64,000 nucleotides of DNA, taken from an uncultured virus (IMG/VR IMGVR_UViG_3300030329_004422) (taxonomy: Duplodnaviria > Heunggongvirae > Uroviricota > Caudoviricetes). Location of the stretch: IMG/VR virus record IMGVR_UViG_3300030329_004422, one strand, 5' to 3'. Of the stretch, positions 33,032-60,903 are shown piece after piece. Below the pieces are notes generated by a model. That model was given only the letters and a program-made list of their open reading frames with translations, did not search any database and was not told the DNA's origin. How positions within the stretch are numbered: position 1 is the stretch's first letter; the number at the start of each line of letters is the position of its first letter. The position numbers and the translations under genes are program-made.

Positions 33032-34024
33032 TTACTTGGCAGCTTGTTGCTTCTCGATACCAGGGTGCTCAGCCGTGGTAAGGACAAGCTTCGCCGCCTT
33101 CTCTGCCTTGGATGCCGCCGACACGATGGCCTTCGGGTCATCCTTCAGCACCTCAAGCCAGTGGTTCAGGTACTGCGCGTGGTCTTCGCGTGGTTCTTCT
33201 GGCTGGTTGATACCAGCATCGGCACACAAGAACGCTGCGCCCAACTCAGCCACCAACTCTTCAAAAGCATAGGCTTGCTTGTAGCTGCCCTTTCGTTCCT
33301 TCTTGAAGCGGTTCAGACGTGTGCTGTGACCCGTGCTGTGAATCACCTCATGAAAAGCAGTCGAGAAGTATTCAGCCTCTCCATGAAACTGCTCAAAGTG
33401 TGGCAGTTGAATGAAGTCATTGGATGGCCTGTAGAATGCCGAGTCGCCGCCGTGGGTGATAGTGACTTGCTCAGACCATGCTTCCAGAATCACCTTTGCA
33501 TCTTCGTACTCGTCGCCCGCCTCGGAACGCTTACCGCCGTCAATGAGAACCGTGTCCTCTTGAAGCGTTGGACGTGGTCCGGGGTCATGCTTGCTGCCTT
33601 CTTCCCACTCAATCTGGCAAGCGTTGAAGACTGTGTACAGCCTCATCTTTGCAAAGGTCACGGGCTCACCGCTGGCGTCAAGCTTGACCTTTCCATTCTC
33701 TTTGAATGGCAGGAACAACCACTTGACGATGCGCGTACCCTTCTCACCCTTGCGGACCTGACCGCTCTTGCCTTGGGCACCCTTGTACGTGTGCCACGTA
33801 TCAGAGTGGTAGCCACGCTCAGACTGTGCCGCCCACAGCAGAAGGACATTGACTCCGCTGTATGGCTTGCCAGTACCTCCACTGACTGGACGGCTCAAGG
33901 CGCCACCCAATGCGGTCCAGCCTTTGCGCCAGGGTTGCACACCCTTCTCAAGCGAGGCCAGGATGGTATCGGTGATGACCTGATAGGGGTTAAACTTGGT
34001 CTTGGTTTTTGGCTTGCGTGCCAT
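33032..34024 (-). CDS. ardC: ArdC-family anti-restriction ssDNA-binding/zincin protein
   Basis: ITD.I...LE.GV.PW, YSGVN..LL, VRKGEKG, VFN..Q, HEVIHSTGH..RL.R, YAFEELVAELGA. Confidence 0.92.
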   Translation of the reverse strand: MARKPKTKTKFNPYQVITDTILASLEKGVQPWRKGWTALGGALSRPVSGGTGKPYSGVNVLLLWAAQSERGYHSDTWHTYKGAQGKSGQVRKGEKGTRIVKWLFLPFKENGKVKLDASGEPVTFAKMRLYTVFNACQIEWEEGSKHDPGPRPTLQEDTVLIDGGKRSEAGDEYEDAKVILEAWSEQVTITHGGDSAFYRPSNDFIQLPHFEQFHGEAEYFSTAFHEVIHSTGHSTRLNRFKKERKGSYKQAYAFEELVAELGAAFLCADAGINQPEEPREDHAQYLNHWLEVLKDDPKAIVSAASKAEKAAKLVLTTAEHPGIEKQQAAK

Positions 34025-34056: not shown

Positions 34057-34089
34057 TATTTAATCACGTGACATAGAATGTCAAGTATG
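34057..34089 (-). promoter_or_regulatory. Repeated phage promoter with CACGTG
   Basis: TTGACATTCTATGTCACGTGATTAAATA upstream of ardC. Confidence 0.75.
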
Positions 34090-34105
34090 TCAGTGCGGAT
34101 AAAGC

Positions 34106-35214: not shown

Positions 35215-35442
35215 TCACCTCCCCACCGGGTAGCCGGTGCCGTTCATTATGCTGACACGTTCAGGGTTCAGCGCATGTTTCATAATCCCCACATGCCCAC
35301 GGTCTTCGTCGCTGCCGCCGTGCCTTTCTGCTTCGTCCGCAGCATCTTCGGCATCGCCAATGGTGCTGTATGTTCCAAGCACATTGTACTGTGTGCCATT
35401 GTCTTGTGACCATTCTCGAACCACTTGGTAGATGTATGTCAT
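35215..35442 (-). CDS. Small array protein
   Basis: CTGGAGCAAACATG start. Confidence 0.55.
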   Translation of the reverse strand: MTYIYQVVREWSQDNGTQYNVLGTYSTIGDAEDAADEAERHGGSDEDRGHVGIMKHALNPERVSIMNGTGYPVGR

Positions 35443-35478
35443 GTTTGCTCCAGTGGGGCCGAAGCCCCGGTTGATTAG

Positions 35479-35700
35479 TTAGCCTTCACACTCTACGATT
35501 AGGTCCAGGTCCCAAAGCACTTCATCGCTACCAGGCTGAAGCTCAGGCCGATGCTCACACCCAATGGCGTGAGGGTCTGGATAGCAAAGCAACCACTCGC
35601 CGTGCCAGGTTTGATAGAACGCCTCCAGTGTGAGGCTGTTTGAACGGAAGAACGTCCGCGCGTCGTTTTGGGTATCGAAGAATCTATAAGACAGTCTCAT
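35479..35700 (-). CDS. Small array protein
   Basis: CTGGAGCAAACATG start at 35700. Confidence 0.55.
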   Translation of the reverse strand: MRLSYRFFDTQNDARTFFRSNSLTLEAFYQTWHGEWLLCYPDPHAIGCEHRPELQPGSDEVLWDLDLIVECEG

Positions 35701-35713
35701 GTTTGCTCCAGGG

Positions 35714-36010
35714 CTATCGGTTGAAGGTGTGACCGGTCGGTGTGACCGTGTCATCGAATCGGGTCCACGTCACGCCATCGTTGAGCGTGTCGATGAATGT
35801 CTCAGCAATCACGCGGACTGGCTTTGCGTGCTCCGTTAAGCCTCTACGGACGGCGGTGTACGCTGCCTTCAGTGCAGCATCGGCGGCGCTGACACCGCTG
35901 ATGACTTCAGCATGTACGACACCCTCGCCGCCTTCAGGAACGACATAGGTATAGAACAAGAACGGGTTGCGGGTTGCGGGGGTAGGAATACGTTTAGCGA
36001 TTGCGGCCAT
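35714..36010 (-). CDS. Small array protein
   Basis: CTGGAG RBS downstream of a promoter. Confidence 0.55.
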   Translation of the reverse strand: MAAIAKRIPTPATRNPFLFYTYVVPEGGEGVVHAEVISGVSAADAALKAAYTAVRRGLTEHAKPVRVIAETFIDTLNDGVTWTRFDDTVTPTGHTFNR

Positions 36011-36033
36011 GATAATCTCCAGGTTGAAAAGTA

Positions 36034-36066
36034 TATTTAATCACGTGTCAGGGTATGTCAAGTGTG
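36034..36066 (-). promoter_or_regulatory. Repeated phage promoter with CACGTG
   Basis: CACACTTGACATACCCTGACACGTGATTAAATA. Confidence 0.75.
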
Positions 36067-36076
36067 GGGTTAGGGA

Positions 36077-36475
36077 TTATCCCCAGGAAGGCCACACTTC
36101 ACTGTCATCCGGTATCTCAAGATGCTTTGCGTACATGTAGGCTGCGCGTGCCTCGCAAACTTTATGATACGCGGGCACATACCCGTCATTGTCTTTGCAC
36201 CAAACGTCAAGGCCACTAAAAGTTTCAGGGTTGGATTCATCGACTGCGTTCACCTTCTCTTTTAGCTGCCTGAATGCCTCAATGAATGCGTTGCGAAGTG
36301 GGTCCACTCGTCGGCAGTCGTCGCAGATATGCTGGCCGTCGTACCGGCTCACAGCATTGAACGCTATGGGCTCAAGCAACGGCTCGTCACAGTCTGGACG
36401 TGGGCAAGGGTTGTCATAGTTTACAGTGATGATGCCAGCTTCGATAGCTTCGGCCAGTGCTTTTGGGTTTCTCAT
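36077..36475 (-). CDS. Small Zn-finger-like array protein
   Basis: CPRPDC...NAVSR.D...ICDDC; CTGGAGCAAACATG start. Confidence 0.6.
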   Translation of the reverse strand: MRNPKALAEAIEAGIITVNYDNPCPRPDCDEPLLEPIAFNAVSRYDGQHICDDCRRVDPLRNAFIEAFRQLKEKVNAVDESNPETFSGLDVWCKDNDGYVPAYHKVCEARAAYMYAKHLEIPDDSEVWPSWG

Positions 36476-36490
36476 GTTTGCTCCAGGGGT

Positions 36491-36631
36491 TTAGCGGTTC
36501 CAGTAGATTGAAAGGCGGTGCCCGAAAATGTGAATACTCACGTACCCGGTTTCTTCTTCCGGACAGTCGAGGTTGTGGAATACACCGAAAGGGGTACGAC
36601 CGGGGGTGGGGTGACTGTGTTGCAGGGTCAT
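36491..36631 (-). CDS. 46-aa peptide
   Basis: ATGA overlap with the upstream gene. Confidence 0.4.
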   Translation of the reverse strand: MTLQHSHPTPGRTPFGVFHNLDCPEEETGYVSIHIFGHRLSIYWNR

Positions 36632-36780
36632 GATTGCCGCCACGGATTGTAAGGCATTCCATCGGCGAGCCATTCAGCGGCACTTAAAATGACAAACTCA
36701 TCGAGGCCCCGAAGAAGGCGGCGTTCATTGATATCCTTACAGGTACTTACATATCGGTTGTACAGTTTTGTGAAGTCCAT
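36628..36780 (-). CDS. 50-aa peptide (not in ORF track)
   Basis: CTGGAGCAAAAATG start; MDFTKLYNRY... Confidence 0.5.
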   Translation of the reverse strand: MDFTKLYNRYVSTCKDINERRLLRGLDEFVILSAAEWLADGMPYNPWRQS

Positions 36781-37031
36781 TTTTGCTCCAGGGCTCGTTT
36801 GAGTGATTGATTGAGGCGCTCTGCATTTATCTTCATGGCTTGTTTCTTGGCGCTTGCTTGGGTCTTGAACGGTCCAAACTCCACGGTTCGGCCATCCTCA
36901 TCCAGCCAGAACCCTGGCCGCTTGGCATTCATGTATAGGGAAAACTGACGTGGGCCGGTGTGCTCGATGGCGAAGGTAGCTGTCAAACACTCGAAACGGA
37001 TGAAAGGTTTTCTGCGAAAGTTTAGGCTCAT
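36747..37031 (-). CDS. Small array protein
   Basis: GGAGGT RBS; ATGA overlap. Confidence 0.5.
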   Translation of the reverse strand: MSLNFRRKPFIRFECLTATFAIEHTGPRQFSLYMNAKRPGFWLDEDGRTVEFGPFKTQASAKKQAMKINAERLNQSLKRALEQKWTSQNCTTDM

Positions 37032-37318
37032 GATTGACCTCCACATGGGCTCATGTACAATCCGTCAAGAAAGGCGTGCATCCGGTAGTAGGTTTCACGC
37101 TTGGTTCCGAGCCCGGTTATGTCGCGCTCGGCTCCGCCCTCGTTGGTCAGTTGGCTCAGACGAACCCCACCATAGGCCCAGTCAAGCACATAGGTGCCCA
37201 CGTTGGCGCGATAGCGCCCGGTCTCGTCTTGGGTCCACGGTTCTACCTTTTGACCTGCGGCTAAGTTTATGGCGTCAAGTACGTTTTGGAGTTTTTGCTT
37301 TGTGATACGTGATGACAT
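37028..37318 (-). CDS. Small array protein
   Basis: GGAGG RBS; Y.LD.AYGG..L...GTKRE motif. Confidence 0.6.
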   Translation of the reverse strand: MSSRITKQKLQNVLDAINLAAGQKVEPWTQDETGRYRANVGTYVLDWAYGGVRLSQLTNEGGAERDITGLGTKRETYYRMHAFLDGLYMSPCGGQS

Positions 37319-37320
37319 GA

Positions 37321-37563
37321 CTATGCCTCCGGATAGTGGATGTTGCTGCTGGCAAGGTACAGGGGCTCGCCACCGGGCAAAATGTAAAGGGTGCCTGAGT
37401 TACTCCAGCACACACAGTAAACGCGGTACAGTCGTCCGTTGTGCTCGACCTTGTAAGGCGTGGTCAGCTTGCGACCGTAGCCGCTGGCGGTCTGTGATAA
37501 CCCGCGTTCGTGCCACCATAGCGGCGAGTAGATTAGCTGACTGTCTGTTTCTTTGTAGTTCAT
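37321..37563 (-). CDS. Small array protein (first gene of the array)
   Basis: CTGGAGCAATCATG start; TASGYG.KL.T.Y.V...GR..RVY...WSNSG. Confidence 0.6.
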   Translation of the reverse strand: MNYKETDSQLIYSPLWWHERGLSQTASGYGRKLTTPYKVEHNGRLYRVYCVCWSNSGTLYILPGGEPLYLASSNIHYPEA

Positions 37564-37660
37564 GATTGCTCCAGGGTTGTGCCCTATCCGTCAGGGCAGT
37601 GTTTACCTCCCCGTTGGGGTAGGTCGAAAGTATCGGTTGTACCTATGGTATGGGCTATTG

Positions 37661-37860
37661 CCTAACCTACCCTATCCTAAAAAGGAGAAACATAGATAAG
37701 GGAAGGGTAGACAGTAATAGGCATATAGAGGGTTTTGTATGTTTGAAAAGGTGGGGGAAAGAAGGGGGGCAGGTTAGGCAGGCGGGTGATTGTACAGGTT
37801 GAACCTGCTCTAATCGCTGCCCTAACCTCCAAAAAGAAGGGGGGCAGGAAGGGGGGCAGG
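37661..37860. repeat. G-rich direct and inverted repeats, origin-like
   Basis: GAAGGGGGGCAGG x3; CCTAACCT x3; palindrome CAGGTTGAACCTG. Confidence 0.7.
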
Positions 37861-38149
37861 GTACGGGTAACCGCCATGATAGTGACAAAAAATGTCCGGT
37901 TTCGCTTAAAAATACCAACAAGGCAGGCGTTTTCCGGAAGTTAGGTGCGTGTCGCACCCTTCTCGACGCCGTATCAAAAAGGATACACACCGCCCGATAT
38001 CCAAGGTTCAACGCCAGGAATCGGCGGGTGGTATTGACGTGTCATTCGCACCAGAACCGGTGCAGGCGTATAGGTTTTGATACGCTGTTTTGGCAGGCGT
38101 TAGCGTGCAATCAGGGGGTATCAAGGGTTCAACCAGGGCCTTGCATATG

Positions 38150-39185
38150 TGTGTGTAGCTGCGTACCTTCGGGGGTATTCGCAGGTATGGCACCACGGCG
38201 CGGGCCGGTCTTCAGGGGTCCGCTGCCCGCCAAGGCTCAACCCCTCCCTCAATCATAGGGGGAGCCTCGGCGGCAGCTATGTAATGAGCACCGCTATGCC
38301 TTCCGGCTTCCCCCTGATATGCGCGGTGCAAGGTCACAGGGGTTAGCGGCTGATAACGGGGCCGCGACCGTTGGCGGATTCGGTGAACATGCACCGGCAC
38401 CGGACAAAATGGATTGAATGCACGACGTTCCTCACGGGGCCGCATTGCTTCGCCGTCGGTGGTGGTTCCTCGCCGCATTGGGGCGCTGTCATACCTTCGG
38501 CACTTTCACGATGCGGCGGCGTGCCGTCGTGCATTCAAAAGGGGCGGTGATTTTCGCGCTCACCGGGGCGCTATTCCGTCGGCCACGGCCTGACGGCTCC
38601 CCCGTGTTGGGTGGGGGTGTCCCTGCTATGGTCTTCGGGGTTACTACTCCCACGGCCTCGCCATTGCTCGCCGCATCGGACGCCCACTCTATTTGTGGAC
38701 TCACTCACCCGGCACGCCTTGCGGCTGCTCCGATTCTCCAGGTGCATACAATAGACGGGGCCGTGATGTTGCTCAAAGCCTTAGTGGTGCTCGCCCGCAG
38801 GTTTTGGGGTCTTGGCACTCCCCCGCCGTCCTTGAAACGTGCCGGGAGGTAACTTACACGGGGTCCAATCGGTTGGCCTGTCCTGCTCGCCTCACCCTTC
38901 CCGCCGTGGCGGATTCCATAGGGCTCGGTTGCTTTTCGGATGACGTATCCCCTAAAGGTTACGCCTCTCTTACTCTGTCTTGCTGCATTCCAGCGGTGGC
39001 CGATTGCGCGGTGTTCGTCTTTGCCGCGCCGTGTACCAGGGTCAATCTGTTTCCAGGTTGCCCGTCTATTCCTATTCGCGATGTCAAAGAGTCGATTATT
39101 CGGGTGACCGCTTTAGTTATTGGGCGCTGGCAGTGTTCGCCCCGGTCGGTAGTTATTTTTTTGCGGGGTGTTTCCCCCGCCACAC
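38150..39185 (-). ncRNA. Candidate giant structured RNA of about 1 kb
   Basis: Many nested stems, long-range 10- and 14-bp pairings, GNRA loops on the minus strand, no credible ORF, upstream promoter-like motif. Confidence 0.6.
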
Positions 39186-39189
39186 AAAC

Positions 39190-39222
39190 AAGGGAATCAC
39201 CGTTCCAAGTATGACAAGTGTG
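39190..39222 (-). promoter_or_regulatory. Variant of the repeated phage promoter, upstream of the candidate RNA
   Basis: CACACTTGTCATAC...GGTGATT with the same spacing; weak -10. Confidence 0.45.
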
Positions 39223-39456
39223 GCACCCTAAGAAAACTTGAATATTCTTTTGATGAATCTCGAATAATCAAGGTTGAACCTGGAATATCGAAGACCAAAA
39301 AAAAATAAAAATAAACCAAAGAAAAATGATTGACCCCCCCTAAACGCTGCCGTTGCGCGCGCGGGCTTCCTTATATAGCCCCCCCTTTTTTGTTCTTTCT
39401 GGGTTTTCTTCTGCTTCAGGGGTTGTCATGGTGTGTCAGGTGTGTACATTCAATGC

Positions 39457-39852
39457 ATGACCTTTGCTCTCGCCTTTTCCAACCTCGAAGCAGACGCCCC
39501 CCGTCAACGGGCTCGGTGTGCTGCTACAGGTCGGTTCGTGGCATGGTCGAAGGTCCCACAGCTTCGGGTCCCTGGGGCCCCTCGGGTTGTCGTCATCCCC
39601 TCCCCATTGGTGGAGGTTGACGTGGTCGAGGTTCCTGAGCCCGTCGCTGTTCCCGTGGTTCCCACCTTGGTTGCTCGGGTTGCTGCTGCTGTCATCGATG
39701 GTGCCTCCAGTCTTGCTGGTCGTGTCATCGATGGTGCCGCTGCTATCCCCCCCAAAGTAGTGAAGGGACTACGCTCCATCGGTGGCCTTGCTGGTCGCCT
39801 TGCTGGTCGATTCACTATCACTGGACGTGGCCGGAAGGAGGCCGCCATGTGA
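39457..39852 (+). CDS. Hypothetical Val/Ala/Pro-rich protein
   Basis: ORF with VIDGA x2, LAGR x3 and an RC..TGRFV motif; GC-rich. Confidence 0.35.
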   Translation: MTFALAFSNLEADAPRQRARCAATGRFVAWSKVPQLRVPGAPRVVVIPSPLVEVDVVEVPEPVAVPVVPTLVARVAAAVIDGASSLAGRVIDGAAAIPPKVVKGLRSIGGLAGRLAGRFTITGRGRKEAAM

Positions 39853-39952
39853 CGCACCCTGCCATATCCCGCCTTGAACCTTGGTTTTCGCGGGGATTGG
39901 AGGCCCTCACGTCGATTCGGGAGGTGCTGCGCAGGGGTCCGTCTCGGAGCAG

Positions 39953-40024
39953 CCCCCCCTAAAGGGGGGAGCGGCACGCCGCCGCTGCGCGGCGGCTTGG
40001 GGGGCGGCGAAGCCCCCCCCTAAA
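39953..40024. repeat. Cluster of three GC-rich hairpins
   Basis: 39954-69, 39978-96 and 39999-40018; CCCCCCCTAAA also at 39334. Confidence 0.7.
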
Positions 40025-40047
40025 ATGATATCGACGATATCCGGCTA

Positions 40048-40076
40048 TTGACGCACAATCCGTACAAGTATAGACT
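40048..40076 (+). promoter_or_regulatory. Sigma70-like promoter
   Basis: TTGACG, 17-bp spacer, TAGACT, then GAGGT RBS. Confidence 0.7.
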
Positions 40077-40093
40077 CGATCTCCGAGGTAAAT

Positions 40094-41062
40094 ATGGTTC
40101 GATTTGTGTGTTTGGCTAAGCTGTTTCCATCTGCAGGAATAGCTGGCGTATTGGGCGTTTCAGTAGAAGATCCGGGTGAAATCGAGGATTATCGTGAGGC
40201 ATTGGGCATCAATCCGAGCCAGGTTGTCCGGTTTGTTCGTTTGACCGCTATACCGGATCACGCTCAGCCTCATCTAAAGGCTGGTGACGTTGTCTGTAAG
40301 TTTGATGGCTTATCGGAACGCTTCCTTGATGTTCTTCGTCCAGTAGAGACAACCTACTTACAGAGCCGGTATCAAGCAGGCGAAATCGACTGGGACTTGG
40401 CCGAAGATGTTCGTAGCCTTGCGGTTGAGAAAAGCTGCTGGGAGATCGGTACAGATAACTACCAGGTGGCGATATCAGATCCATCAGGACGCTTAGCAGT
40501 CTTGAGAATGAAGGCAGGCTCACCACGTAAGCTGTTTCGCACAGCATATGCTGCATTGAAGCAGACCAAGCGTGACCGTGATCGTTTAGAGCACAAACCA
40601 GAGGTAGGCTACCTGATTGACCCTTATTGGAAGGAAAAGTGCTCATGGGCAACATTCAAGTTTCTACACAAGTGGCTTTTTGATAATGGCCCTGTAGTTG
40701 ACCCAAAAAAGTTTTACTGGTTCAGCAAGAAGCTAAAGCGCCACAATGAAATCATGCGTGGATTGCCATTGTCTCGATTAGACGACCATCAGATCCGTAT
40801 GCATACGAGGCGCAGGAGCAAACATGCATCAGACTTCTGGAGCCGTGTTCGCAGGGAATACTTACTTGATAAAGACTCGTTGCCACGACCTCTTGCGTTT
40901 GTGGGCTCTAAGAAAGAGATTCGTTGGGTACGGATTACATTAGAAGAGGCAGAGCAGGTATTGGAGTACATTCTGTGGCCTGAGTGGCCTGAACACAAAG
41001 ATCCCATACACTTCTCTGCTATGAATCACAGATCCGTAAACGGGTCACGGGCATGGAATTAG
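40094..41062 (+). CDS. Hypothetical protein
   Basis: 322-aa ORF with promoter and RBS. Confidence 0.65.
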   Translation: MVRFVCLAKLFPSAGIAGVLGVSVEDPGEIEDYREALGINPSQVVRFVRLTAIPDHAQPHLKAGDVVCKFDGLSERFLDVLRPVETTYLQSRYQAGEIDWDLAEDVRSLAVEKSCWEIGTDNYQVAISDPSGRLAVLRMKAGSPRKLFRTAYAALKQTKRDRDRLEHKPEVGYLIDPYWKEKCSWATFKFLHKWLFDNGPVVDPKKFYWFSKKLKRHNEIMRGLPLSRLDDHQIRMHTRRRSKHASDFWSRVRREYLLDKDSLPRPLAFVGSKKEIRWVRITLEEAEQVLEYILWPEWPEHKDPIHFSAMNHRSVNGSRAWN

Positions 41063-41063
41063 A

Positions 41064-41378
41064 ATGTTTAATGTAGCGTTTACTCAGCGTAAGATGCGCC
41101 AAGCGTTGTCTGATTGGTACGGATTCTTGGCTACAGAGTCTCGAAATGCGGAGGATTGGCTTTCACTACCTCATTGGGTGAAGCAAGTACCAAGCAGGCT
41201 TGATATTCCGTGGGCGTTAAAGGATCTCCAATCAATGGCAGGCAATAAGTCTATGATGCGTGCATTGTATATTGTAGTTGACGAAATCTACCTTGCATCT
41301 GAAAACGTCGAAGGTCTTCCTGATATTAGCTTGCTTAGAAATGAACTCTTGAAATGGTATGCAGAACATGTCGAATGA
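41064..41378 (+). CDS. Hypothetical protein
   Basis: Operonic ORF. Confidence 0.55.
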   Translation: MFNVAFTQRKMRQALSDWYGFLATESRNAEDWLSLPHWVKQVPSRLDIPWALKDLQSMAGNKSMMRALYIVVDEIYLASENVEGLPDISLLRNELLKWYAEHVE

Positions 41379-41895
41379 ATGGTTATTTAGTTACGAGATT
41401 CCTGGTGCTCCGATAGGCAAAGGCAGACCGAGAGGTACGTCTGCTGGTGGCCATATACGCCTATACACGCCAAAGAAGACTGCAGATTGGGAGCGTTCGT
41501 CAGCGGGAATGATGTCACAGGCATGGAGGCGAGAGCCATTGGATGAGCCTGTTGAGGTAGAGGTTGCTGCGTTTGCTCATCGTCCAAAGCGCTTGATGCG
41601 CAAAAAAGATCCTGATGGCGTGATCTGGAAGACATCAAAGCCAGATGCGGACAATATATGTAAGTGTGTGTTGGATTCTCTGGTTATGGCAGGCATTCTG
41701 CGCGATGACTCATGTGTGGTGTCGATACGCATACTGGATTTCTATGCAGAGAAGGATCGTGGTCCGAGAGTTTGCATACGGCTTCGTTCAGCGGGCGTTG
41801 AACCTGTCGAAGGTTGGTGGGAGCGTAAGGGTAAAACGTTGGTTGAGGTATTTGATGAGAATGAGCACAAGTTTGTTGATGATTTGCCTTGGTGA
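41359..41895 (+). CDS. rusA: RusA-family Holliday junction resolvase
   Basis: PIGKGRPR, YTPKKT, KPDADNICK.VLD, DDSCVV. Confidence 0.9.
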   Translation: MQNMSNEWLFSYEIPGAPIGKGRPRGTSAGGHIRLYTPKKTADWERSSAGMMSQAWRREPLDEPVEVEVAAFAHRPKRLMRKKDPDGVIWKTSKPDADNICKCVLDSLVMAGILRDDSCVVSIRILDFYAEKDRGPRVCIRLRSAGVEPVEGWWERKGKTLVEVFDENEHKFVDDLPW

Positions 41896-60414: not shown

Positions 60415-60903
60415 ATGGCAATTTATAAAGTAGACGGCGTCGATGGCGTCAATCATTTTCCTAAGAAGTTTGTGCGACTTCACTGCACCACTGCTACAAT
60501 CGCAAAGGGTGATTGGGTCATGATTGATGTTGCTGATACCACTAATGGTAGGGGTAACTCTTGTAAGCAGACTACCAGTAATGTTGCTGGTGCCGAGCCT
60601 GCTTTTGGTATTGCAACTGAAACGCTAACCGCAGCAGGTATTCTCAAGGTTCAAACTGCTGGCCTCTATGGTGACGGTACAACTGGCGGTGGTGCTGCAA
60701 CTGGCGGAAGTGTTACTGCTGGATCAGTCCTTGCTGCTGGAAACACTGTAGGAGCGGGTGGCGCTGCCGGTCAAGTAATGAACTACGCGGGTGCAACTCA
60801 CGTATCGGCTCCGCCCTGTGGTCTTGCTTTGGTAGCAGATGACGACGGTGACTACGGTGCCAACGAGACTACTGTTCTGATTTATGATCAGGGTCTTTTC
60901 TAG
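60415..60903 (+). CDS. Capsid decoration/cement-like protein
   Basis: Follows the MCP; IAKGDWV..., FGIA..., G/A/T-rich. Confidence 0.6.
   Translation: MAIYKVDGVDGVNHFPKKFVRLHCTTATIAKGDWVMIDVADTTNGRGNSCKQTTSNVAGAEPAFGIATETLTAAGILKVQTAGLYGDGTTGGGAATGGSVTAGSVLAAGNTVGAGGAAGQVMNYAGATHVSAPPCGLALVADDDGDYGANETTVLIYDQGLF

Follow-up and report, generated by a model that had tools for sequence, protein, structure and literature searches.

The analyzed stretch of DNA (64,000 nucleotides (nt); referred to as the window) belongs to an uncultured virus of the Caudoviricetes (IMG/VR record IMGVR_UViG_3300030329_004422). Its proteins match PHROG profiles for helicases, a primase, RecE/RecT, an anti-restriction protein, the large terminase, the portal and the major head protein, and Pfam adds ArdC-like and RusA domains; this gene content identifies the window as a fragment of a tailed-phage genome. 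The minus-strand genes run from position 37563 down to 13605 and the plus-strand genes from 39457 onward. The gap of 1.9 kilobases (kb) between the two blocks contains the element described here, which is probably a non-coding RNA gene of approximately 970 nt on the minus strand (38215-39185) and a member of an uncatalogued family of 0.8-1.0-kb RNAs in uncultured marine tailed phages. The extent was taken from sequence conservation, and both ends of the RNA as well as its transcription are predicted. The G+C content was found to be 0.612 for 38001-39000, compared to 0.41-0.56 across most of the window and approximately 0.47 nearby. Since the T4-type large terminase is at most 27% identical to those of GenBank phages and the surrounding DNA (37600-40100) gave zero blastn matches in 50,697 GenBank phage records, the phage has no near cultured relative. 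An initial annotation, made from the letters alone, had proposed an ornate non-coding RNA of about 1 kb at this place, possibly of a new class. This proposal is borne out by the homologues, the compensatory base changes and the lack of an Rfam match reported below.

Apart from the window, the element could be identified on 17 other contigs (nine from IMG/VR and eight from metagenomes; numbered with G or L in the following) using nhmmer, blastn and covariance models. These represent 14 distinct sequences, or 13 when L010 and L013, which are 99% alike, are merged; all variant counts out of 13 treat this pair as a single sequence. A search with a neighbouring 96-amino acid (aa) protein led to three IMG/VR loci, among which L003 carries the element. 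By blastn, the window and L003 share 79.7% identity over 688 nt, whereas the 96-aa protein of that locus is only 51% identical. The other two loci, L001 and L002, have only the 96-aa gene in common with the window, and no element was found in their 12-kb loci by nhmmer or by a covariance model of the 3' hairpin (model R1), nor in the whole L001 contig by BLAST. Exact 19-20-mers from the best conserved block retrieved a second viral contig, L007 (81.5% identity to the window over 574 nt), and nine metagenome loci. Eight of the nine loci matched by the 19-mer were full-length homologues according to nhmmer, and the ninth (L015) was dropped as a chance match. The same 19-mer was found at three places (L017-L019) in 185,579 prokaryote genomes, none of them homologous by nhmmer, and so at that stringency no bacterial or prophage copy was detected.

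More distant members were reached in other ways. The 322-aa protein encoded next to the element gave no relatives as a single query, and an alignment of the syntenic proteins led to four further viral contigs. The divergent copies in G001, L025, L026 and L027, all reached via this neighbouring protein, were confirmed by BLAST of the whole G001 contig, motif searches and the covariance model of the 3' hairpin. A degenerate pattern derived from a conserved hairpin (hairpin Z, see below) gave eight loci, six of which were true, including three new and divergent ones; L032 and L037 were rejected as chance matches in G+C-rich coding DNA. Four subtypes could be distinguished. Subtype A comprises the window, L003, L007, L008, L010/L013 and L012 with a mutual identity of 70-91%, subtype B comprises G001, L030 and L036, subtype C is L035, and subtype D comprises L025, L026 and L027. 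L011 and L016 are identical copies of the window variant. With both terminal hairpins counted in, the seven sequences measured have lengths between 792 and 996 nt, and the others are approximately 0.8-0.9 kb long.

According to the run records, the sources are marine or seawater metagenomes throughout. The sequence was present in 20 sequencing runs, all of DNA or of an unrecorded kind. Contigs from four runs of three studies contain the window variant and an L010-like variant together in the same runs; in the L010-like variant of runs X2, X3 and X5, positions 38373-38624 are replaced by 121 other letters. Since L010-like contigs occur in the window's own runs, these samples contain the RNA in two variants side by side.

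Judged by these alignments, the RNA is better conserved than the flanking 322-aa protein. Between the window and L003 or L010, the nucleotide identity of the RNA was 79-85% compared to 47% aa identity of the protein. The initial annotation had found no credible open reading frame (ORF) in this G+C-rich stretch, and this could be substantiated. Only two long ORFs cover the element, 38418-38852 (plus strand, 144 aa) and 38693-39214 (plus strand, 173 aa), and both were rejected as genes, as the homologues split them into pieces in differing frames. The variable alignment columns are distributed over the three codon phases as 81/71/71 (p = 0.64), and the gap runs within the element have lengths of 1, 2, 8, 13, 14, 16, 18 and 19 nt. 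The adjoining small plus-strand gene shows a strong third-position periodicity in the same analysis (25/8/4 to 28/6/6). The element is thus rejected as a protein-coding gene because its frames are broken among homologues, periodicity is absent and indels are mostly not in multiples of three.

The secondary structure was analyzed in three alignments, using shuffles and a slide control in which the pairing partners were displaced. For the seven subtype A sequences (alignment A4), the RNAalifold consensus contains 235 pairs, of which 95.6% are paired across the sequences. In 26 of these pairs both sides had changed. Column shuffles gave 14.3±2.5 such pairs, with 0 of 500 reaching the observed number, and structures whose partners were slid by 1-3 columns gave 2-6. 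The alignment of the 3' core (A6; 10 sequences of subtypes A, B and C) contains 24 pairs, 97.1% of them paired, with 18 cells changed on both sides compared to 6.4±1.7 in shuffles (0 of 500) and 0-4 in slid structures. The number of pairs is less striking here (6 versus 4.1±0.9), and 19 of 500 shuffles equal it. In the alignment of the 3'-terminal hairpin (A7; 11 sequences of all four subtypes; 21 pairs, 92.1% paired), 10 of the 21 pairs had changed on both sides, compared to 4.4±1.5 in shuffles (0 of 500) and 2-6 when slid. In hairpin Z, U-A alternates with C-G within subtype A and again within subtype B, and therefore this change arose more than once. An all-against-all test of column covariation returned 1636 'pairs', mostly reflecting shared ancestry, and was abandoned. 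Altogether, the element combines a length above 500 nt, 235 pairs in 40 helices, compensatory changes and a lack of coding periodicity, the features of a large ornate non-coding RNA. From these comparisons it is very likely a genuine conserved structured RNA.

The initial annotation had left the strand mixed, with a few stems favouring plus. This part could not be upheld: the alignments indicate that the RNA strand is minus, because of the asymmetry between G·U and A·C pairs, GNRA loops found on this strand only, a conserved promoter and the folding energy of the whole element. In the helices with Watson-Crick covariation, 39 cells are G·U and 9 are A·C, and 20 pairs alternate between Watson-Crick and G·U compared to 7 between Watson-Crick and A·C. 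This asymmetry is somewhat biased, as the fold was made on the minus strand. In the terminal hairpin alone, pairs such as GU:5 GC:4 AU:2 are found. The GNRA loops reported for the minus strand are real and comprise GAAA (39043-39060), GCAA (38716-38725) and GGAA, the last of which is GAGA in relatives. When compared with dinucleotide shuffles, the minimum free energy (MFE) of the whole element gave a z-score of -2.71 on the minus strand (0 of 40 shuffles as low) and of only -1.26 on the plus strand (4 of 40). This proposed test hence turned out in favour of the minus strand and not of the plus strand, but the effect is moderate, and folding energy by itself provides weak evidence.

All parts of the RNA described in the following lie on the minus strand and are given in window coordinates. 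The predicted 5' end is formed by a terminal hairpin (GCGGGG-GAAACA-CCCCGC; 39163-39180), followed by an A-rich single strand (39152-39162). Hairpins with a GAAACA or GAACA loop and a subsequent A/C-rich tract were identified in 12 of 13 variants, the exception being L035, and the stem is altered between variants (GUCGGC../..GCCGGC, GACGGG/CCCGUC). An optional second hairpin (ACCGACCGGGGCG...CGCCC...GCGGUC; 39106-39150) is present in subtype A except for L007, partial in L035 and missing from subtypes B and D. It precedes the conserved linker CUCUUUGACAUCGCGAAUAGG (39071-39091), whose core UCUUUNANAUC was found in 13 of 13 variants from four subtypes. In the RNAalifold consensus (helix 6), UCUUUG of the linker is predicted to pair with CGAAGA approximately 500 nt downstream, a putative long-range pairing.

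The linker is followed by the multi-stem Domain I (38750-39070), which is closed by the helix 39062-39070/38750-38758 (AAUAGACGG/CCGUCUAUU in the window). This helix has 8-9 base pairs (bp) in all seven variants of subtypes A and C, and two of its positions are compensatory; the sequences are AAUAGACAG/CUGUCUAUU in L007 and L008, and AAUGGACAG/CUGUCCAUU in L035. The initial annotation had listed it as a pseudoknot-like 10-bp pair (38750-59/39061-70); complementarity and compensatory changes could be found, but the pair closes a domain of 320 nt and forms no pseudoknot. Compensatory pairs are also present in the inner helices 10, 11, 17, 18, 20 and 21. Helix 10 is a GAAA-tetraloop hairpin (CAACCUG-GAAA-CAGAUUG; 39043-39060), in which L007 and L008 have C-G in place of a U-A pair and C-G in place of a C·A mismatch. 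For subtypes B and D, the alignment of Domain I is unreliable and a simple search for the closing helix was ambiguous. Domain I further contains a hairpin with the invariant loop CACG (UCCGC-CACG-GCGGG; 38900-38913) and a 27-nt block, AGGCGAGCAGGACAGGCCAACCGAUUG (38866-38892), which is invariant in all seven aligned subtype A sequences, most of its residues belonging to junctions. This block supplied the 19-20-mers used to retrieve homologues.

The 3' core (38537-38744) is kept in subtypes A, B and C and contains three hairpins, X (38599-38617), Y (38576-38596; loop CGUG) and Z (38545-38565), the last followed by CCCCUUUU at 38537-38544. Next to it, the window carries a lineage-specific insert hairpin with a perfect 14-bp stem (38414-38538), which is restricted to the window variant, L011 and L016 being identical to it. 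L007 and L008 have an unrelated insert at this site, and the other variants have none. The subsequent variable 3' module (38288-38397) includes the helix 38288-94/38323-29 and a hairpin with a GGAA/GAGA tetraloop; helices 35, 36 and 38 of the consensus are located in this module. It is common to the window, L008, L010/L013, L012, L030 and L036, missing in L003, L007 and L035, and replaced in G001. Within the variable module of G001 (L031; RNA strand, approximately 60,460-60,500), a hairpin similar to a tRNA T arm was seen (GGGG stem, UUCGAAU loop, CCCC stem), where ARAGORN predicted no tRNA. The RNA ends in a long terminal hairpin of 21-26 bp (38224-38275; unit 38215-38284), which is flanked by the conserved sequences UUACAUAGC (38276-38284) and GCGGACC (38215-38223). 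Model R1, built on this hairpin, detected 14 places at E ≤ 4e-19 and none in unrelated loci. The peripheral hairpin modules are thus present, absent or replaced between lineages.

The eleven pairings listed in the initial annotation are all complementary. The long hairpin at 38222-77 and the stems 38545-50/38560-65 and 38288-94/38323-29 are kept in the family with compensatory changes. The 14-bp stem 38414-27/38525-38 is perfect but belongs to the insert of the window lineage and is not a family feature; the stem 38471-78/38511-18 lies inside the same insert. Of two other pairings complementary in the window, 38708-16 (partner 38838-46) is deleted in L003, and 38212-18/38311-17 is not kept by the other variants.

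The listed stem 38600-07/38856-63 has a competitor. Two partners are available to CCCCGUGU (38856-63): ACACGGGG at 38600-07, with which it forms 8 bp and shows one compensatory pair, and ACACGG at 39029-35, with which it forms 7 bp and shows two compensatory pairs as well as one change from A-U to G-U. By the number of compensatory pairs, 38855-61/39029-35 appears better supported than 38600-07/38856-63 (two versus one), and the two pairings might represent alternative states of the RNA.

A tertiary or quaternary contact may involve the loops CACG and CGUG, which are exact complements. The CACG-loop hairpin in the 5' half was found in 13 of 13 variants on seven differing stems, including UCCGC/GCGGG, CCCCC/GGGGG, CCGGC/GCCGG, CCAGC/GCUGG and CUGC/GCAG. 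A CGUG-loop hairpin with at least three stem pairs follows 300-400 nt further on in 10 of 13 variants, and subtype B has a GC-CGUG-GC tip on a 2-bp stem. When the window RNA was shuffled 300 times, both loop hairpins were present in 3 of the shuffled sequences. We infer that the two loops may kiss, either within one molecule or between molecules.

Directly upstream of the element, a sigma-70-like promoter was predicted at 39189-39220 on the minus strand, with the -35 hexamer TTGTCA (39212-39217), the weak -10-like hexamer TCCCTT (39190-39195) and a predicted transcription start at approximately 39182-39185. It coincides with a promoter-like repeat (39195-39223; family D2, four copies in the phage) that is oriented into the element, as noted in the initial annotation. 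In the seven aligned subtype A sequences, the same place contains a -35 motif TTG(T/C)CA, a spacer of 16-17 nt and a hexamer ending in ATT, to which TCCCTT of the window is a weak exception. In G001, L030 and L035, TTGCCA or TTGCAC was found together with TAAGCT, CAATCT or TATAAA. A putative promoter thus appears to be conserved at this position in all subtypes, and sequence conservation sets in directly after it. Further copies of the phage promoter are located at 34062-34090 and 36039-36067 (minus strand; TTGACA, 16 nt, TAAATA) and look stronger than the RNA promoter; another copy lies at 39417-39445 (plus strand; TTGTCA, 16 nt, TACATT) ahead of the small divergent gene. A stretch resembling the phage ribosome-binding motif was also considered and was rejected, as relatives do not conserve the resemblance.

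The small divergent gene (131 aa; 39457-39852, plus strand; ATG at 39457) adjoins the RNA promoter and was identified in 13 of 15 loci searched, several of which derive from the same contig. Its N-terminus (36-49 residues, 47 in most loci; MTFALAFSNLxADAPRQRARC..GRFVAW..) is 71-91% identical, and the remainder is rich in Ala, Val and Pro and diverges fast. No family was found in a Pfam search. By its position, the product is a candidate partner of the RNA. An antisense ORF of 157 aa (39504-39977) overlaps the gene and is probably spurious. Beyond it, the 322-aa gene (40094-41062, plus strand) is syntenic with the RNA and was found in 12 of the 15 loci, the flanks of the other three being too short. 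The identity of its product ranges between 46 and 65%, or 46 and 54% over the whole protein, compared to 70-85% nucleotide identity given for the RNA within subtype A. No PHROG or Pfam family and no Atlas match was found for the 322-aa protein, and its AlphaFold model (pLDDT, predicted local distance difference test, 60.6) gave no Foldseek match in the PDB at E ≤ 0.001. In every locus with sufficient flank, the element stands back-to-back with the small gene and the 322-aa gene.

On the other side, the RNA of the window and the first gene (ATG at 37563) lie 650 nt apart, and the sequence between them is poorly conserved. The strongest local folding of the region was found here (z = -4.98; 37601-37900, minus strand). 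Between the RNA and the first early gene, the stretch 37600-37900 (minus strand) contains C-rich direct repeats at 37753-76 and 37840-63, which read GGGGGNAGGAAGGGGGGCAGG on the plus strand, together with inverted motifs resembling TTAGGG (GGTTAGGGCA/CCTAACC). Related motifs (CCCTAACC/GGTTAGGGCA) recur downstream of the RNA in L003, L010 and L012. This stretch may be a second structured element or a set of protein-binding repeats.

Additional features were noted around the promoters and in the gene blocks. An A+T-rich tract with long runs of A and T (39230-39360) is located between the divergent promoters at the switch of gene orientation and could represent an UP element or a region resembling an origin. 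It is followed by a G+C-rich hairpin with a T run (39330-39400). Two copies of the palindrome AGGTTGAACC(T), at 39271-39281 and 37796-37806, bracket the RNA unit, approximately 55 nt upstream of the -35 hexamer and approximately 410 nt beyond the 3' end of the RNA. These are four strand-matches at two sites compared to 0.24 expected, and 0 of 100 shuffles contained as many. Similar motifs, GGTTCAACC, precede the promoter in G001 and L025, and in L003 they are found on the downstream side. A dimeric regulator acting on the divergent promoters may use the palindrome as its operator. Five early genes (35442-37578, minus strand) share a near-identical translation-initiation region, CCCTGGAGCAA(N)CATG (repeat families D1, D3 and D4). 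Another early gene (33032-34024, minus strand) encodes an anti-restriction protein of the ArdC-like kind that carries a zincin peptidase domain, and the plus-strand block begins with a RusA resolvase (41359-41895).

No Rfam family was matched in the window. Using all 4227 models of Rfam 15, zero matches were obtained for the whole window at the gathering score. For 37500-39700 at E ≤ 10, four chance-level matches were returned (E 0.69-7; 13.7-19.6 bits, far below the thresholds), and nine homologue loci (40,496 bases) gave none at E ≤ 0.1. Therefore, the element is not a GOLLD, ROOL, OLE, HEARO or raiA RNA, a group I or II intron, RNase P, tmRNA, 6S RNA, IMES or a member of another curated family. 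A likeness to RNase P or to domain 5 of group II introns, seen by eye, had no model support. Searches of the literature on large or ornate, phage, marine and intergenic structured RNAs did not return a description of this RNA, and the family is likely to be undescribed so far.

The following mechanism is proposed. Host RNA polymerase would start at the sigma-70-like promoter, which stands back-to-back with the promoter of the small conserved gene and heads the minus-strand block, where small (early) genes and replication genes are encoded; expression of the RNA would accordingly be early. The transcript would begin with a stable hairpin and an A-rich tract. Next would come a large domain, closed by the long-range helix of 9 bp, and then a second core with three conserved hairpins, and the transcript would end in the hairpin of 21-26 bp. 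Around the conserved core, peripheral hairpins would be inserted, lost and swapped, and the CACG and CGUG loops would kiss intra- or intermolecularly. The stable folded RNA would then act in trans early in infection, as a scaffold of RNA and protein or as an assembly of RNA only. A discrete stable RNA is favoured because of its capped ends, the core with invariant junctions, the variable peripheral hairpins and the complementary loop pair; the promoter found after the RNA in the L003 group and the differing downstream genes point in the same direction. Features of this kind are typical of RNAs that function via their three-dimensional fold (RNase P, self-splicing introns, GOLLD and ROOL) and not of leaders. 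Judged from sequence comparison, we give a discrete, trans-acting RNA an even chance. It is conceivable, though doubtful, that the family is a new class of giant phage RNA, a marine counterpart to GOLLD, ROOL or pRNA of unrelated fold, whose molecules, as the first product of infection, are joined through CACG and CGUG into a ring or cage of RNA only or into the RNA core of a phage machine, or else that the conserved core and its invariant junctions constitute a new ribozyme.

Several observations weigh against this interpretation. The covariation is based on 14 sequences in four clades, the shuffle and slide controls retain shared ancestry, and the structure was derived from the same sequences. 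The 5' domains of subtypes B and D are too diverged for reliable alignment. The RNAalifold energies fail to separate the strands (-509.7 versus -519.7 kcal/mol), and the MFE z-scores of 300-nt windows (+0.95 to -2.9) are locally unremarkable. As both loops, CACG and CGUG, never vary, their pairing is without covariation support. The -10 hexamer of the window is poor (2 of 6 positions). At the other end, a terminator scan of 37000-40500 detected zero terminator-like sites, the sequence after the 3' hairpin included, and in L035 a ribosome-binding site and an ATG lie approximately 45 nt past this hairpin. Given the missing 3' terminator and the arrangement in L035, read-through into the early genes, and with it a role as leader, is quite possible. 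In addition, the conserved hairpin Z in the middle of the element, together with CCCCUUUU, resembles a terminator or attenuator.

These last points belong to the main alternative, which we regard as rather unlikely. Here the folded RNA would remain part of the early message as its 5' leader and control it in cis, acting as an antitermination element of giant size or as an attenuator in which hairpin Z and its U run form a regulated terminator. As the first element past the promoter, it lies on the same strand as, and at the head of, a minus-strand block of about 24 kb, and it could make RNA polymerase termination-resistant together with a partner protein, in the manner of put or nut; the conserved, arginine-bearing N-terminus of the small gene product would, speculatively, suit an N-like partner. 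Hairpin Z with CCCCUUUU(UU) is kept in all 10 aligned variants and has a terminator-like score in L030 but not in the window, where the U run begins 4 nt past the stem and comprises only 4 U. The next gene lies beyond another 320 nt of conserved RNA and, in some of the phages, a further promoter. Moreover, the RNA is 10-15 times larger than known antitermination or attenuation RNAs and far more elaborate, and conserved stable hairpins cap both of its ends. The gene array can be served by the stronger promoter copies at 36039-67 and 34062-90. In the L003 group, terminator-like hairpins and a near-consensus promoter (10 of 12 positions) are located between the RNA and the downstream genes, and the genes that come first downstream of the RNA vary among the carrier phages.

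Transcripts that open or prime replication origins are known from ColE1 (RNA II) and from the R-loop origins of T4, and an origin-associated transcript of this kind would suit the position of the element at the orientation switch, near the minimum of the cumulative GC skew (approximately 35-37 kb), adjoining the A+T-rich tract (39230-39330), between the two copies of AGGTTGAACC(T) and with replication genes downstream on the same strand. In this case the structure would be selected for hybrid formation or for processing. However, the skew of phage genomes is largely set by transcription, the element contained no iterons in the repeat analysis, and the A+T-rich tract lies upstream of the promoter and hence outside the transcribed part. 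A primer would also need far less than the conserved multi-way junctions, GNRA loops, modular peripheral hairpins and invariant single-stranded blocks of this RNA, and this explanation is very improbable. Slighter still is the prospect that the element acts at the level of DNA, as a packaging or recombination site or through hairpins of single-stranded DNA, or that it is the remnant of a decaying gene. A G+C-rich stretch forms many stems by chance, and the plus strand folds to the lower energy; on the other hand, sites in duplex DNA need neither compensatory changes in many helices nor a tolerance of G·U that is specific for one strand (39 versus 9), and a conserved promoter lies directly upstream in all subtypes. 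The element lacks the coding periodicity of a gene remnant, and decay is ruled out as its nucleotide conservation exceeds that of the flanking proteins.

The discrete structured RNA thus preferred here would add an unrelated family of 0.8-1.0 kb, which occupies a fixed position at the head of the early region with two conserved neighbours. To our knowledge, very few classes of bacterial or phage RNAs above 500 nt exist, and OLE, GOLLD, ROOL, HEARO and raiA each opened new biology or a new RNA architecture. Four divergent subtypes already yield covariation, and the loop-loop contact and the internal terminator-like hairpin are offered as hypotheses. The carriers are abundant marine phages (runs of up to 12 studies, with contigs compared for four runs of three studies), in which approximately 1.3% of the genome is taken up by the structured RNA. 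Should this RNA target the host as infection begins, it would represent a new type of take-over or counter-defence agent, and should it self-assemble, a new natural RNA nanostructure.

The known RNAs and candidates closest in one respect or another differ in size, setting or partner. Structured-RNA candidates from the same intergenic IMG/VR source, with the same type of covariation evidence, are 29-151 nt long with a mean of 67 nt, according to the accessible part of Fremin, Bhatt and Kyrpides 2023 (PMC10690425). Two contig numbers searched in the readable supplements of that study, which exclude the alignment files, were not found there; a fragment of the RNA could be among these candidates, while the whole RNA of approximately 0.9 kb is not, going by the size range given in the accessible part.

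The HK022 put and lambda nut sites are the first transcribed elements of their early regions and consist of stem-loops of approximately 15-70 nt. The RNA described here is comparable in that it also comes first behind a predicted early promoter and shares the strand of a long gene block, but it is 800-1000 nt long, with two domains and capped ends. The phi29 pRNA (approximately 174 nt) is likewise encoded where an early transcription unit begins, and its molecules assemble into a ring by pairing of two complementary 4-nt loops; RNAs of this type (approximately 120-174 nt) bind the portal of phi29-like phages. The shared feature is a pair of complementary 4-nt loops, here CACG and CGUG, conserved across subtypes; the RNA of 800-1000 nt is 5-8 times larger, has no Rfam match and is accompanied by a T4-type terminase, and we know of no T4-type terminase motor that uses RNA. 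By analogy alone, a role in packaging would be pure speculation.

The OLE RNA is similar as a large ornate RNA with compensatory changes. It is encoded in chromosomes of extremophilic Firmicutes and has a dedicated membrane protein as partner, as stated in the accessible part of PMC3413148, and it dimerizes via a palindromic kissing loop according to that of PMC12286853. The element is phage-borne instead, and no Rfam model of OLE matched it.

ROOL (rumen-originating, ornate, large) measures approximately 580 nt, and both it and GOLLD are RNA-only nanocages of unknown purpose. The element is like ROOL in being borne by a phage, in its multi-stem junctions and in having no known protein partner; it is larger, lacks an Rfam match, and its loop pair is invariant, unlike the pseudoknots of ROOL, which are supported by covariation. 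In the accessible part of PMC12286853, the ROOL assembly is built by conserved loop-loop contacts and that of GOLLD by kissing loops and A-minor contacts; many GOLLD members exceed 800 nt, are highly structured, are encoded by phages or prophages and have a conserved and a variable part, and both RNAs are described there as often lying near tRNA genes. ARAGORN, in contrast, found zero tRNA genes in the 64-kb window and in 13 homologue loci. The hosts of GOLLD are Lactobacillales and mycobacteria, besides lake samples, compared to uncultured marine phages here, and the element differs further by its fixed position heading the early genes and by the absence of a match to the Rfam model. With GOLLD it shares a large size, a high degree of structure, a function that is not known and its location in phages, as the window contains phage genes and the nine homologue contigs from IMG/VR are viral. 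New are the family, the fold and the genomic setting, whereas the category of large ornate phage RNAs has precedents. On our best reading, the element is an RNA of the GOLLD and ROOL kind that is unrelated to both by the Rfam models.

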